Part shown: piece after piece, positions 12,009 through 55,270 of the stretch
How the letters are laid out: the number at the start of each line of letters is the position of its first letter
How positions within the stretch are numbered: the stretch's first letter is position 1
Assembly (NCBI GenBank): GCA_014905635.1
Contig: JABVCE010000020.1
Location: 682,001 to 737,270 of the forward strand
Reading direction: 5' to 3'
Source: Scenedesmus sp. PABB004
Taxonomy: Eukaryota
Length of the DNA stretch: 55,270 bases
Translations under genes and position numbers: made by a program
The notes under the pieces: generated by a model
What the model was told of the DNA's origin: nothing
What the model saw: the letters and a program-made list of their open reading frames with translations, nothing else
Databases searched by the model: none

Positions 12009-14577
12009 TCAAAAGGTGAACCCGTTTGCGGGCAGCGTGAGCTTGACCGTCGTGTGGCGCCGCCAGCTGTCGGTCTCCCACTCTGCGCGGCGGCGGCGGC
12101 GGCGGGCTCAGCCGCCGGCGCCCCGGCCCCAGCCAGAGCCCTGCGGCCTGAGCGCTAAGCCCTTCAAGCCCTAAGCCCTAAACCTGCCCCGCGCACCGAT
12201 GCTGCCGCCCATAAAGTGTGCGTAGACGCGCGCGAGCGGCACGCCGACGCCGATGCCCGAGAACGGCGAGCCGTGGTTGCGGCTGTAGCCGTACCTGGAC
12301 GCGCGCGCCGCCGGAAATGGGGGCGGCGGCGGGGCGGGGGCGGACTTGATGATGCGACGCGGCCGTGGGCGAGCGCGCGCGCGCCGGGTGGCCGCGGCGG
12401 GCTCCTCCCCCCGCCCCGCGCCGCTCCGTCGCCGCCTCACAGGCTGCTGCTGGGCTTGCTCTTGCTCCAAAAGTAGTCAAACATGTGCCCCGAGATCTCG
12501 CCCGAGGGGATGCCGTGCCCCATGTCAGTGACGGTGATCTCGACGCCCGGCGCCGCGCCGGCGGCGGCGGCGCCGCCGTCGGGCGCGGCCGCGGGCGCGG
12601 CGGGCAGGCGCGCGATGTCGACGGTGACGGGCGACGCGTCGTCGACCTCCCACGCGCCGTAGCGGTTGACCACCGCCTGCGCGCGGCGGCGGCGGCGGCG
12701 GCGGCGGCGGCGGCGGCTCGCTTGAGCGACCGCCCAGACCGCAGCGACTGCCCAACCGGCGGGGACGCGCCTGGCGTGCGTGCGAGGGAGGCGAGCAGGC
12801 GCGGGCACACACACACACAGATCACACACAAATCACACGGCACGCGCTCACGCAGCGCGCGCCTGCATCGCGTTCTTCAAGACCTCCGTGAGCACGTACT
12901 CCACGTACGGCACCACGAGCGTCGCGGTCGCGGCCGTGTCGCCGCGCAGCACCACGTCCGGCGCGGCGCTGTTCTTCTCGACGCAGAACGCCCTGCGAGG
13001 TGAAGGTGAGGGTTCAGCGGAGGGGCGCGGCGCAGAGGGGGAGGGAGGGGAGGAGGGGGGCGTGTGGGCGGCGTCGGAGCGGTGCGGCGCGGCCGGCGCG
13101 CGCGCGCCCTCCAGCGGGCCCCGCCGCGGCGGCGGTGGCGGCGGCGCCGCGCGCGCCTGCAGTCGTCGGCCACGCCTGCGACGAGGTCGCCGAGCACCGC
13201 GTGCCGCCGCACGAGGCTCGCCGCGCGCGGCGCGCCGGGCGGCGCCGGCGGCAGCGCCTGGTGCGGCGGCGCGTAGGGCGCGGTCGGGCTCGTCGCGGCG
13301 TGGCCGGGCTCGTGGTAGTGGATCACGCGCGGCCGCGCGCCGCCGCTGCTGTCGCCGCTCCCGCTCCCGCTCCCGCCGCCGGCCGCCTCGAGCGCCGCGA
13401 GCGCCGCGCTGTGCTGCGCGAGCATCACGCGCGCTGAGAGGAGGTACCAGTGGCACAGGTCCAGCACGCGGTTGAGGTGCCGCACCTGCCGGGGCGGCGG
13501 TGCGGCGCGCGGCGTGGGCGGCGAGCTGTCTGGCGCCGCGGCCGCGCCCTCGCCGCCGCCCCCCCCCCCCCCCCCCCGCGCCGCCGCGCCGCGCCGCGCC
13601 TGCTGGCGGTCGTCCCACCAGCCGAGCGTCTCGGTCAGCGCCTGCGCGCCCGACGTGAGCCGGCCGACCTCCACCTCCAGGTGCTCCTTGAAGGTGCCCA
13701 GGTGGCTCTCAAAGTGACGCAGCCCCTCCAGGTCGTCTGCGCCGGCGCGCGGCGCGGCACGGCGGGGCGCGGCGGGGCGCGTCGGGCCGGCGGTCGCGCG
13801 GGCGCGGGCCGCCGCCGCCGCCGCGGCGCGCACGCACCCGTGCCGACGAGCCGCCAGTCCTGCGCCACCTCCAGCCCGCGCTCCTTGCTCGCGACCGTCC
13901 CCGCCAGCAGCTCGCGCAGCGCGGGGCTCGACGACGGCGGCAGCGACTGCGTGCGGCCGCGAACGCGGCGGCGGCGGCGCGGCGGCTCTACGCCGCGCCC
14001 GCGCGCCGCCAGCGGCCGCGGAGAGCCCCCCCCCAGCCCCACCGTCGCGCGCGGCCGCGCGCACGCTGAGGCGGTGGATGTGGTTCTGCAGGCGCGCCGG
14101 CAGCTGGCTCTTGAGGAACGTCGCCGAGTTGACGAGCAGCGGCAGCGACGGGTGGCGCACGAGGCTGTCCAGCTGCGTGATGGCGATCGGCTGCACGTAG
14201 TTTGGCTGCGCCAGCTGCGTGTCGTACAGGGAGACCTCCTCGGGGTCGGGGTCGGGGATGGTCCCGAAGCGGCGCCGTGCCGGCGCTGACGCGCCGGCAG
14301 CAGCGGCGGCGGCAGCGCCGCTGCCGCTGCGCGGCGCGGCGCGGGCGCCGGGCGGCGTGTGGGCGGCAGCGCGGCCGCGCGTGCGCATAGTGCTCGCTCC
14401 CATGAGCGTGATGTGCGGGGCGTGGGAGCCTGGGGCCGCCCCGCGCCGCGTGGGTCGGGGCAGCAGCAGCGCGCGGCAGCCTGGCGCGCACCTCGCGGCC
14501 CACGGCGCGGCCGCGCCCCACGAGGACGACGACGCCCGCCAGCACCGCAGGAGGAGGGCGCTTCCAGCCCCCTGCAT
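12009..14577 (-). CDS. PDK: Pyruvate dehydrogenase kinase / BCKD-kinase family protein (HATPase fold), divergent
   Basis: N box YVLTEVLKNAMQA, G1 box VTDMGHGIP, G2 box FSGIGVGVPLARVYAHFMGG, N-terminal ATFLKSQLPARL and an Arg/Ala-rich presequence. It ends ...PANGFTF-TGA at 12009. Confidence 0.8.
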
Positions 14578-14814
14578 TGCTGCTCGGGATCGTTGGCGCC
14601 GGTGCTCGGGATCGTTCAGCGGTTCCGGGCGCCGCGCTGCGCGTCGGGGTCGTGGCGGGCGGGGCGCCGCTTGCAGGCCTGGCGTCCGCACTCTCACGGG
14701 CGGCCACGATCGCGTGCCGCCGCCAGCTGCACCGCCGCCGCCGCCGGGGCGCAGGGCGCAGGGCTCGGCGGGCCGCAAACGAACGCGGATCGCCGCGCTG
14801 CGTTCGCCCTGAGC

Positions 14815-52775: not shown

Positions 52776-55270
52776 TCAGGGCGCGGGCTTGGAGGTGGGC
52801 AGCGTCTCGCTGCCGTCGGCCTGCACGCGCGAGCCGGGCGCCGTCTCCACGCCGGGCGGCAGGCTGTCGTCCACCTCCTTCACCGCAGCGTGGTGCGCCG
52901 CGTGCTCGGGGTTGACGTGGTACTGCGGGGCGCGGGGTTTTGAGGTTGTTATTTGGTAGTTTGAGTTTTTGAATGCAGCGGGCGACAGCCGCAGCGGCCG
53001 GACGCGCGCGCGGGCGGGAGCGCGGGACCGCAGCGCGGGAGCGCGGGCGCGCGGCGCGGCGGCGCACCTGCAGCACTGCGCTGGGGCTCTTGAACGGCAG
53101 CGGCACGCGCATCTTGTCCTGCAAGCGGCGCGCACGCGGGGGGAGGCGAGGCGTCGGCCGGCGCGCCCCCGTGGGCCGCTGCTGCAGCGGGCGCGGCGCG
53201 CGCAGGCCGCTGCTGCAGCGGCGCCGCCACCGCAGCGCGCGCGGCGGGCAGGGCCCCGCGCCAGCGCGCGCGGCGCGCGCGCTGCGCGGCGCGCGCGCTG
53301 GAAGGCGTCGGGGCAGTTGGCGTAGAGGACCTGCGGCCGGCGGCGCGCGGCGGCGGTCGGCGCGCGCGTGGGCTGCGGGCGGCCCCCGCCGGCGCCGACC
53401 GTGGCCCCCTCGCCGCCGCGCGCGCGCCCCGCCGCGGCGTGCGCTGCCCGCCCCAGTGCGCGCTGGGCTGGGCGCCGGGCGCTGGGCGGCGGGCGGCGCG
53501 CACGTTGTGGAGGTTGTTGCGGCCAAGGGGATGCCGGCGAGGTCGAGAATGAAGTTGAACAAGTAGAGGGTGAGGTAGCTGGACGTTATAACACGTTAAA
53601 ATACGACGGGGCGAGCGGGGTGGGGCGGGGCAGGCGGGCGGGGCGGGGGCGCGGGGTGCGGGCGGGGCGGCGTCAGCTGTGTGCGCTGGAGCGAGGGGCC
53701 GGCGAGGCGCAGGGTGGGAGGGGCGCCGGCGGCGGCCGCAGCGTCGGCGGGGGCCGCGCCTGCAGACGCCGGCGATGACGCCATAGGCGATGGAATAGGT
53801 CTGTGGTGGTGGTGTGTGTGTATGTGTGGAGGGGGGGGGGCGTGCGTGGGTGTGTGTGGGAGGGAGGTGGCGCGGCGGGCGTGAGGCAGGGGCGAGGGCG
53901 CGCGAGGGGCGGCGCGAGGGCGAGCGCGGGGGGCGCGCGCGGGGCCGCCGCGCGCGCGCGGGCGCTGGGTGGTCGCCGCCCCAGCGTGGTTGGCAATGCA
54001 GCAACGCAGCGCCGCGCAGGGCGGGGTCCGCGGCGACGCACCGGAGCCCCCTCCCCCCCCCCCCCCACACACACACACACACGCACGCACACGCACACCA
54101 CGGCCTGCCCGCGCCCGCGCGGCGCCGCCCCCGCGCTGAGCAGCCGCCAGGGTTGCGCAACGTGGCACCTGCTCAGCGCGACGCGGCGGCGCTGCGGGGG
54201 CCGCCCGAGCGGCCCAAGCCCCCAACCGCGGCGGCGGCGGCCGCAGCGCAGGGCGCGCCGGCGGCCGCCGCCGCGTGCGGCGCTGGGTGGAAGTCGAGGC
54301 CAGAGTGCGCAGCGACTTGCACCTAGCGCCGCGCAGCGGCGGGCGCGCCGCTGGGAGCCCCTGCCGTCGCACGCCCCCGGCGCCGGGCCGCGGGCGGCGC
54401 CGCGGTCGCCCCCCGCGCGCTCAAGCAGCGGGAGCCAGGGCTGCGAAAACCTGGCACCTCCTGAGCTGAGCGCAGGGGGCGGCCCGCGGCGCTGGCGGCG
54501 CTGCGGGGGCTGCCCAGCCAGCCCAAACGCCTCGAATCCCACCGTGTCAGCGAGGCGGCCGCGGCCCAGGGCGCCGCGCCTCGGCGCCGGCTGCTGCGCC
54601 TCGGCGCCCGAGGGAGAGTGGAGGAGCAGCAGCTGGCGCCGACGCGGCGCGCGCCGACGGCGCTCGCTCGCTGCCCCGGACACAGCCCCCCCCCCCCCCG
54701 CCCGCAACCCGCCGGGGCGTGCGCGCGGCAGCCTGCGCGCGCGCTGGCTCGGGCCGCCGCGCCCCCACGCGCGGGGCGGCTGCGGCGCGCCGCCGGGCTG
54801 CAAGCCCCCGACCAAAACCCTCACCCGCGCGGGCCGCGCGCGTGAGAGGGGCACCGGGCACCTTCAACCACTCAAAACCCTCAACCAAATCACCCCTGAG
54901 CCCTAAACCCTAAACCCTAGACACCCCCCCCCCCCGCGCGCACCAGGGGCATCGTGACGATGGTGATGAAAGCGGGAACCGCTTGCTGCGGGGGGGGGGG
55001 GGGGGGGGGCAGGGGCGGTGTGAGTGGCGTGTGAGCGGCGTGTGAGCGGCGTGCGAGCGGCGTGTGAGCGGCGTGCGAGCGGCGTGCGAGCGGCGGCGGG
55101 GAGGGGAGGGGTCGAGGGTCGTGCGAGGGTGGTGGGGCGTGGTGGACGCGGGGGCAGCGCGCGAGCGGCCGGCGGCCCATCCCCGGCCGGGACGCGGGTC
55201 TCGGCGGCGGCGGCGGGCTCGGGGGTCAGGGTGACGAGGTTGGCGGCCTCCTGACCGCAACCTGCGCACC
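52776..55270 (-). CDS. AzgA/AZG-type adenine-guanine permease (NCS2-related), 3' exons only
   Basis: AVPAFITIVTMPL|TYSIAYGVIAGVC is the AzgA C-terminal signature. Downstream exons end at ...TSKPAP-TGA. The 5' part lies outside the window. Confidence 0.8.
54895..54921 (+). repeat. Interstitial telomere-like repeat (CCCTAAA) just inside an intron donor of the minus-strand gene
   Basis: ccctgagccctaaaccctaaaccctag. Confidence 0.85.
55019..55093 (+). repeat. 11-bp tandem repeat GTG[T/C]GAGCGGC x~7, intronic
   Basis: Read directly from the sequence. Confidence 0.85.

Follow-up and report, generated by a model that had tools for sequence, protein, structure and literature searches.

Polar telomere-like words at the ends of introns

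In the 55,270-bp stretch of Scenedesmus sp. PABB004 DNA analyzed here (the window; 79.0% G+C), the telomere word GGGTTTAGGG is found just past the intron start, and its mirror CCCTAAACCC just ahead of the intron end, in many introns of few genes. The pattern is genuine, with a clear polarity and a specific sequence, but it is facultative and gene-restricted, and it is not a universal intron code.

The introns were defined by homology, not by RNA: homologs, obtained by three exon queries plus one exhaustive search, were aligned to the DNA with our own spliced protein-to-DNA aligner, which permits GT-AG or GC-AG introns and penalizes GC donors. The homology-defined set comprises 40 introns, i.e., 14 in the gene of the amidophosphoribosyltransferase (PurF), 11 in that of the 26S proteasome regulatory subunit Rpt6, 7 in that of a putative protease (MP, the putative metalloprotease of a preliminary description of this DNA) and 8 in that of the N-carbamoylputrescine amidase (CPA), which was used as internal negative control. 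Heptamers with at most one mismatch to TTTAGGG or to CCCTAAA are termed G-type and C-type words, respectively, unless a word is called exact. In addition, an ab initio predictor based on codon usage and a splice position weight matrix was run; it made 39 predictions and returned 35 of the 40 homology-defined introns exactly. As these 40 introns served both to train and to score the predictor, its 69 extra introns, located in 13 other gene regions and mostly of 50-150 nt, are taken with moderate confidence.

In the 33 introns of PurF, Rpt6 and CPA, the first 100 nt contained 23 G-type words and no C-type word, the last 100 nt contained one G-type and 31 C-type words, and the middles contained three and seven, respectively. 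The 30 internal exons of the same three genes carried three G-type words and no C-type word. When all 40 introns were divided into halves, words of the opposite polarity were rare: 3 introns had one of C type in their 5′ half and 2 had one of G type in their 3′ half. The G-type words spanned positions +5 to +106 and the C-type words positions -4 to -103. On the + strand of the window, exact TTTAGGG occurs 7 times and exact CCCTAAA 15 times, while about 0.4 of each would be expected from the base counts. Of the 97 words with at most one mismatch in the window, 74 fall within the 40 homology-defined introns, and the remaining 23 are mostly isolated one-mismatch words in coding sequence.

The preliminary description had listed G-strand variants just after donors and C-strand variants just before acceptors, with a polarity that follows the direction of transcription. 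All 8 of its + strand donor sites were recovered at +5 to +26 nt from a homology-defined donor, and 15 of its 16 acceptor coordinates lie inside a homology-defined intron, 1-93 nt before the acceptor. The site at 20213 does lie 12 nt before an acceptor, but this acceptor was only predicted ab initio. In sense orientation the two minus-strand sites (12169-12182 and 54878-54921) proved to be arrays of the G type that start 14 and 20 nt past GTGCGC donors; both junctions were read from the frame (exons ending in ...HFMGGSI and ...FITIVTMPL) and were not aligned to a homolog. Donor 12196 ends a pyruvate dehydrogenase kinase-like exon (...GIGVGVPLARVYAHFMGGSI), and donor 54943 closes a short permease-like exon (...AFITIVTMPL); the ab initio predictor missed both of these motif-bearing introns, at 12.2 kb and 54.9 kb. 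That the polarity follows transcription is borne out by these two minus-strand cases, and also by the introns of the + strand that carry only G-type or only C-type words.

The words exceed what arm composition predicts

In 25 introns, the 5′ arm (first 100 nt) was about 50% G and 15% T, and the 3′ arm (last 100 nt) about 58% C and 13% A. Dinucleotide shuffling of the arms gave on average 7.2 words where the real 5′ arms carry 23, and 13.2 where the real 3′ arms carry 31, and neither count was reached in any of 1000 shuffles. The same held for exact words (7 versus 0.7 in 5′ arms, and 8 versus 1.5 in 3′ arms; none of 1000 dinucleotide shuffles). Counted per intron, 9 of the 40 5′ arms had TTAGGG, where shuffles gave 1.6 on average, and 13 of the 40 3′ arms had CTAAAC, where they gave 1.9; none of 500 shuffles reached these values.

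Among the 60 heptamers of composition T3A1G3 in the 5′ arms, 58 were one of the 7 rotations of TTTAGGG, out of 140 possible heptamers, and rotations of CCCTAAA accounted for 78 of the 91 composition-matched heptamers in the 3′ arms. An unbiased k-mer ranking was headed by AGGGTT, GGTTTA and CAGGGTT for the 5′ arms and by TAAACC(C) and CTAAAC(C) for the 3′ arms, and the extended words obtained from this ranking, CAGGGTTTAGGG and CCCTAAACCCTG, are exact reverse complements. The spacers between adjacent G-triplets were of the form YTNA in 15 of 21 four-nucleotide spacers, with TTTA as the commonest (6), and TAAA (9) and TGAA (5) led among the spacers between adjacent C-triplets. A run of four G-triplets (G4-type) was present in 14 of the 40 5′ arms and in none of the 40 3′ arms, and its C equivalent in 3 of the 40 5′ arms and in 28 of the 40 3′ arms.

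In the five introns of at least 600 nt, the 110-nt arms (1100 nt in total) carried 24 words and the middles (2801 nt) only 6, a clustering that argues for selection near the splice sites. The preliminary description had already set aside random insertion of telomeric repeats; given the shuffles, the T3A1G3 heptamers and the density in arms versus middles, both random insertion and G/C skew fail as explanations.

Other strand-asymmetric simple repeats obey the same arm rule: C/A-type repeats, such as (CACG)n, (CTCCCT)n and CA-rich stretches, lie near the acceptor, and GTT-rich and poly-G runs lie near the donor (Table 1).

Distribution among introns and genes

Words of the G type stood in the 5′ half of 12 of the 40 introns and words of the C type in the 3′ half of 17; both were present in 7 introns, and 22 introns carried a word of any kind. 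The carriers belong to three genes: G-type and C-type words were found in 8 and 9 of the PurF introns, in 4 and 4 of the Rpt6 introns, in 0 and 4 of the MP introns, and in none of the CPA introns. Among the 69 predicted introns elsewhere none carried a G-type word and two carried a C-type word. The idea of an intron-definition code built from telomeric repeats, put forward in the preliminary description, was thus not upheld, since none of the 8 CPA introns has a word and 67 of the 69 predicted introns in the 13 gene regions lack one as well. The introns that carry words are slightly longer (median 227 nt) than those that do not (177 nt).

A long gene at 1851-9701 (+ strand), whose product is Ala/Gln/Glu-rich and coiled-coil-like, has 22 short predicted introns (61-147 nt) with no telomere-like word. 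Weak telomere-like words, CAGGGTTGTTTTTGGTTGAGGGGG and CCCTGAATGCTCAGGGTTCGGACCCGTCTAAACCCTG, were seen on the + strand at 41095-41145 and 41269-41306; this stretch lies between the convergent 3′ ends of PurF and a syntaxin-like gene, and may be an intron of an untranslated region (UTR) or plain UTR.

Pairing of the intron ends

The two words are exact reverse complements and stand near opposite boundaries of introns, and it had been proposed for this DNA that they base-pair and close the intron into a loop. If the 5′ G-type words paired with the 3′ C-type words in the pre-mRNA, the resulting helix could define the intron or speed its splicing; we regard this as rather unlikely. Many introns do have predicted arm-to-arm duplexes of -70 to -118 kcal/mol. 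Whole-intron folding covered 28 of the 40 introns, those of 120-450 nt, with only 5 shuffles for each, and in 16 of the 28 at least 15 pairs were predicted between the first and the last 80 nt. In the minimum-energy folds of the five introns of up to 450 nt that carry both words, 24 of the 62 G-motif nucleotides pair with C-motif nucleotides. Intron 37345-37528 is predicted to close from +5 to -10, with its first array, GGGGGTTAGGGTTTAGG (+13 to +29), paired with the C-type words at 37496-37512. Introns with both words had z values of -1.9 to -3.3 versus shuffles.

However, the two kinds of word occurred independently of each other. In PurF, Rpt6 and MP, a small sample, 7 introns carried both, 5 only the G-type, 10 only the C-type and 10 neither (Fisher p = 0.73 for co-occurrence, and 0.70 in a second test). 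In MP, 4 of the 7 introns carried C-type words and none a G-type word, and the five introns with G-type words only belong to PurF and Rpt6. Furthermore, the duplex energies of the real arms equaled those of mononucleotide shuffles (mean z 0.05, with z < -2 in 6 of 40), the real introns had 641 predicted end-to-end pairs versus 741 after block shuffling, and the GC skews of the 5′ and 3′ arms showed no negative correlation from intron to intron (r = -0.06 and +0.33). Since shuffled arms pair as well, the pairing potential comes from the composition of the arms, and the telomere words add little to it. With independent ends, C-type words alone in MP and shuffled arms that pair equally, loop closure by the telomeric words found no specific support. 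A stable helix over the C-type word would also compete with U2, if this word were the branch site, and in human LCAT intron 4 the equivalent stem-loop is dispensable, as stated in the accessible part of that report (PMC2481429).

A precedent for bridging is given by zebrafish introns, where mutually complementary repeats at the two ends of an intron enforce the pairing of its splice sites (Lin et al. 2016, PMC4691745, in the part available). The (AC)m-(GT)n introns of zebrafish and the GGG...CCC introns proposed for human resemble those of the alga in their complementary simple words at opposite ends and their very stable predicted bridging; within the same part of that source, at least three GGG in the first 40 nt together with at least three CCC in the last 40 nt characterize 16% of the highly structured human introns. 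In contrast to the zebrafish repeats, which according to the available text co-occur above independence (PMC4691745), the words of the alga do not (p = 0.7). In addition, the stability of the alga's introns equals that of shuffled arms, which sets them apart from the bridging introns of both animals, and their repeat unit is a telomere-like heptamer where that of zebrafish is a dinucleotide.

A bipartite intron architecture as the favored explanation

The explanation that we favor, tentatively and from sequence, is that the words are end-specific intronic splicing elements, which would act at the RNA level as part of a bipartite intron architecture. The introns have two arms of opposite bias, G/T-rich on the donor side and C/A-rich on the acceptor side. 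Among the longer introns of certain genes, the 5′ arm favors the word G3-YUNA-G3, with the core GGGUUUAGG, which would work as a G-triplet-type intronic enhancer with a UAGGG motif. The 3′ arm favors the complement of the 5′ word, with the core CUAAACCC or CUGAACCC, and this complement sits where a branch site and a C-rich substitute of the polypyrimidine tract are to be expected. We infer that the words function in splicing and that each end may be read independently, the 5′ end by G-strand-type RRM proteins and the 3′ end by the U2/branch-site machinery and/or by poly(C)-binding KH-type proteins. The complementarity of the arms would then be a secondary aid, which can bring the splice sites together.

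The C-type core can be given as CTRAACCC, and its position is branch-site-like: in 14 of the 15 introns that have a CT[AG]AAC, the last one lies 10-51 nt before the acceptor, and in the other at 82 nt. This is where CTGAC sits in the short introns of the window, since CTGAC(G) is enriched in the short predicted introns (11 of 69 versus 1.8 expected) at 16-51 nt. When compared with the branch-point consensus CTRAY or yUnAy, the CT[AG]AAC of the alga differs in carrying one more A, in frequently occurring as 2-5 copies and in showing no mutual exclusivity with CTNAC. The proposal of the preliminary description that the C-type word acts as branch point is consistent in terms of position, but the CTNAC tally does not support a replacement of the branch site.

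Several points weigh against the splicing elements proposed here. The words are missing from 18 of the 40 homology-defined introns, from 8 of 8 CPA introns and from 67 of the 69 predicted introns, and so wide an absence would be surprising for a general signal of splicing. CTNAC is no rarer in introns with CTRAAC than in the others (5 of 17 versus 26 of 92, p = 1.0), a comparison that is uninformative about exclusivity, as 66 of the 109 introns lack both CTRAAC and CTNAC in the stretch 10-60 nt before the acceptor. CTRAAC has one A more than yUnAy/CTRAC, and its pairing with U2 would call for a bulge of two nucleotides. The data come from a single window with four aligned genes and 40 introns. 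Finally, the exact complementarity of the two words would be a coincidence if their readers were strictly independent; only if the readers were the proteins that bind the one and the other telomere strand would it cease to be a coincidence.

Proteins of this kind are known. hnRNP A1/UP1 and the Chlamydomonas protein Gbp1 bind the G strand of telomeres, and PCBP/hnRNP K bind the C strand; UAGGG and CCCUAA are the RNA versions of the preferred sites of these proteins. If such proteins acted on the introns of the alga, their site preferences would explain complementary words at both ends of an intron. Gbp1 is mentioned in the accessible part of PMC6549138. In a more far-reaching variant, telomere-strand repeats would have been recruited in this lineage as a marker of intron polarity, UUUAGGG-type after the donor and CCCUAAA-type before the acceptor, to be read by the G-strand (RRM) and C-strand (KH) telomere-binding hnRNPs and/or to zip together. 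In a genome of 79% GC, where a U-rich polypyrimidine tract cannot be afforded, they would take over the role of that tract and would let long introns splice. We consider this variant unlikely.

Intron recognition in genomes that are too GC-rich for U-rich polypyrimidine tracts is poorly understood outside vertebrates, and a polar, sequence-specific pair of complementary words offers a concrete, mutable handle on it in a green alga. If the splicing elements proposed here were confirmed, telomere-strand-binding hnRNPs would become tied to constitutive splicing, and gene prediction in extreme-GC algal genomes could be improved. A full-text literature search, with most papers of subscription journals outside its reach, returned no account of telomere-like words at intron ends with this polarity.

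Relation to G-triplet and C-triplet enhancers

GGG intronic splicing enhancers were reportedly described by McCullough and Berget (as cited in PMC4691745). As far as the available text of Murray et al. 2008 (PMC2481429) shows, G-rich and C-rich triplets enhance splicing additively from within human introns that are GC-rich and whose polypyrimidine tracts are weak. The introns of the alga show the feature of such enhancers, with GGG runs after the donor and CCC runs before the acceptor. The likeness to the short GC-rich vertebrate introns of that report extends to the lack of a U-rich tract and to the mutual independence of the two kinds of element (PMC2481429, accessible part). The differences are that in the alga the triplets stand in a fixed heptamer register with a telomere spacer (TTTA and its one-step variants; TAAA or TGAA), that the 5′ and 3′ words are exact complements, and that they are concentrated in few genes. 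On our best reading, the pattern of the alga would be a telomere-flavored variant of the known G-triplet/C-triplet intron architecture.

Passenger repeats, telo boxes and introners

The words could also be passengers, i.e., short interstitial telomeric or microsatellite-like heptamer arrays that arise by mutation (telomerase-assisted repair or slippage) and are kept only where their strand composition suits the arm, in which case the arms would be functional and the words would not. This is compatible with the spacers, among which the canonical unit is the most frequent and each variant (CTTA, TTCA, TTGA, CTGA; TGAA) differs from it by one step, mostly by AT-to-GC changes, as expected in a GC-driven genome. 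Arrays with a 7-nt period (39431-39485) point the same way, the same introns are full of other asymmetric simple repeats ((CTCCCT)n, (CACG)n, poly-G, poly-C, GTT-rich), and a spread restricted to certain genes is easier to see as a historical accident than as a general signal. However, a filter only removes, and the arms of the long introns contain about 22 words per kb, versus 2 per kb in their middles and about 0.5 per kb in the rest of the window, so that the roughly tenfold excess of arms over middles is left unexplained. Furthermore, most 3′ sites are single CTAAACCC units, with TAAACCC (19) and CTAAACC (17) far more frequent than AACCCTA (4) and ACCCTAA (4), which span the junction between units, and the words are found again and again, in 22 introns belonging to three genes, at per-intron counts that 0 of 500 shuffles reach. 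We therefore doubt that the words are passengers; if they were, the intron arms would still impose a strong strand-composition filter on simple repeats.

Interstitial telomeric sequences derived from repair or fusion should be tandem arrays of the canonical unit placed and oriented regardless of gene structure. In the alga there are at most 2-3 canonical units per array, and position and orientation are tied to splice sites.

A DNA-level role would bring the words close to the plant telo box (AAACCCTA), in that telomere-repeat-binding Myb proteins would tune the transcription or chromatin of housekeeping genes, and the orientation of the words would be set by the skew of the arms. The core AAACCCT(A/G) indeed equals the plant telo box, and the carriers include the housekeeping genes PurF and Rpt6, with neighboring genes that have no words. 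As with telo boxes and short interstitial telomere motifs of plants, the same core lies inside genes of a green-lineage organism. In the accessible part of Gaspin et al. 2010 (PMC3022908), telo boxes belong to promoters and 5′ UTRs and show no enrichment in introns (680 per Mb in 5′ UTRs versus 155 genome-wide and 151 in introns), and the intronic ones are biased to the first two introns. In contrast, the words of the alga are intronic gene-wide, from intron 2 to 14 of PurF and from intron 2 to 9 of Rpt6, near splice sites and oriented by transcription. No exact or clustered match was found in the 5′ regions of these genes (33.4-34.1 kb and 46.3-46.6 kb), and the closeness to splice sites has no explanation at the DNA level. 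A telo-box-like role is thus highly unlikely.

Mobile elements of the introner type, i.e., introns derived from a transposon family with telomere-like terminal inverted repeats, would account for the inverted-repeat-like words at both ends. An all-against-all blastn of the 40 introns gave only short low-complexity matches, at best 28-60 nt within GC-rich simple repeat, or CT-rich repeat of 118-146 nt at about 75% identity. The words are not at the intron termini but at variable distances from them (+5 to +106, and -4 to -103). As no element body is shared among the 40 introns, the introner hypothesis, which has next to no probability left, was rejected.

Genes and other features of the window

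The coordinates of the genes, of the word arrays and of the other intron features are collected in Table 1.

Table 1. Genes, telomere-like arrays and other intron features of the window
Feature	Position	Strand	Location or introns	Basis
Amidophosphoribosyltransferase (PurF) gene	34111..40644	+	14 introns	Spliced alignment to P0002 (Tetradesmus obliquus)
26S proteasome regulatory subunit Rpt6 gene	46566..51657	+	11 introns	P0226, P0236 and P0234 alignments
MP gene, 3′ part	20636..22991	+	7 accepted introns	Spliced alignment to P0362
N-carbamoylputrescine amidase (CPA) gene	28078..30528	-	8 introns	Spliced alignment
G-type words CTTAGGG, GGGTTTAAGGG	34980..35014	+	+9 to +43 of PurF intron 34972-35394	
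G-type array CTTAGGGTTCAGGGTTGAGGG	36124..36144	+	+10 of GC-donor intron 36115-36299	
G-type TTAGGGTTTAGG ... CAGGGTTTAGGGG	37361..37393	+	+17 to +49 of intron 37345-37528	
Two copies CAGGGTTTAGGGG(G)TTGAGG	38298..38340	+	+24 to +66 of intron 38275-38937	
7-nt periodic array GGGCTCA GGGCTGA ... GGTTTAGGGTTTAGGGTTGA ...	39431..39485	+	+7 to +61 of intron 39425-40196	
G-type GGGGTTTAGG ... CAGGGTTTAGGGG	47506..47539	+	+6 to +39 of Rpt6 intron 47501-47762	
G-type GGGTTTAGG ... CAGGGTTTAGGGTTGAGG	48917..48975	+	+17 to +75 of intron 48901-49713	
C-type CCCTGAACCCCTAAACCCTG	21590..21611	+	31-52 nt before MP acceptor 21642	
C-type CCCTAACCCC ... CCCTTAACCCCTAAACCC	22510..22556	+	2-48 nt before MP acceptor 22558	
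C-type CCCCTAAACCCC ... CCCTTAAACCCC x2	38838..38925	+	12-99 nt before PurF acceptor 38937	
GCTAAACCCCG, three copies	39261..39305	+	14-58 nt before PurF acceptor 39319	
C-type CCCTCAAC ... CCCTGAACCCTAAACCCTG ... CCCCTAAACCCTG	49607..49691	+	22-106 nt before Rpt6 acceptor 49713	
C-type array CTGAACCCTGACCCC ... CTGAACCCTG ... CCCTAAAACCCTAAACCCC	50783..50835	+	7-59 nt before Rpt6 acceptor 50842	
GGTTTAGGGCTTAGGG on sense strand	12169..12182	-	Starts 14 nt after donor 12196	Junction read from frame
TCTAGGGTTTAGGGTTTAGGGCTCAGGGG ... TTGAGGG on sense strand	54878..54921	-	Starts 20 nt after donor 54943	Junction read from frame
GC-donor introns	35460, 35810, 36115	+	PurF	
GC-donor introns	49805, 50214, 50933	+	Rpt6	
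GC-donor intron	20662	+	MP	
Intron with other simple repeats	28824-29365	-		
Intron with other simple repeats	51203-51606	+		
Intron with other simple repeats	36381-37122	+		
Intron with other simple repeats	35460-35699	+		

The nearest relative of one PurF exon was found in Tetradesmus obliquus (order Sphaeropleales), with 89% identity, followed by other green algae, which points to a chlorophycean alga close to the Sphaeropleales as the source of the DNA. In PurF intron 34591-34799 the acceptor chosen by the aligner (34799, ...CGCCGAG) is probably 9 nt too far; an alternative acceptor CAG at 34790 follows a C-tract and was chosen by the ab initio model, and the counts are unaffected. For Rpt6, two of the alignments (P0226 and P0236) gave the same introns throughout, and the third (P0234) agreed on the first 10, after which it ends. 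The MP alignment yielded 8 introns, of which 21284-21463 was dropped as dubious. The CPA introns were concordant in 3 of 4 homologs, and the fourth homolog adds one 54-nt intron, which was left out.

A Pfam search with 53 exon-like pieces named several neighboring genes and returned no match for MP or for the PDK-like and AZG-like pieces. Rfam gave no match at gathering score in the window, where no U2 gene was found. Metagenome contigs scanned with the PurF exon yielded 80 loci, all of at most 62% identity and judged to be bacterial from identity alone, and no related algal introns.

In many exons the third codon positions are near 100% GC. According to the accessible part of PMC7354681, 72.4% is the highest G+C reported among sequenced Sphaeropleales, and the 79% found throughout the window exceeds that.

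A GC donor (GCGCGC or GCAAGC) replaces GT in 7 of the 40 homology-defined introns. In typical eukaryotes GC donors amount to about 1%. The three GC donors of Rpt6 sit at junctions in highly conserved protein sequence. A G-type word was present in 1 of the 7 introns with a GC donor versus 11 of the 33 introns with a GT donor.

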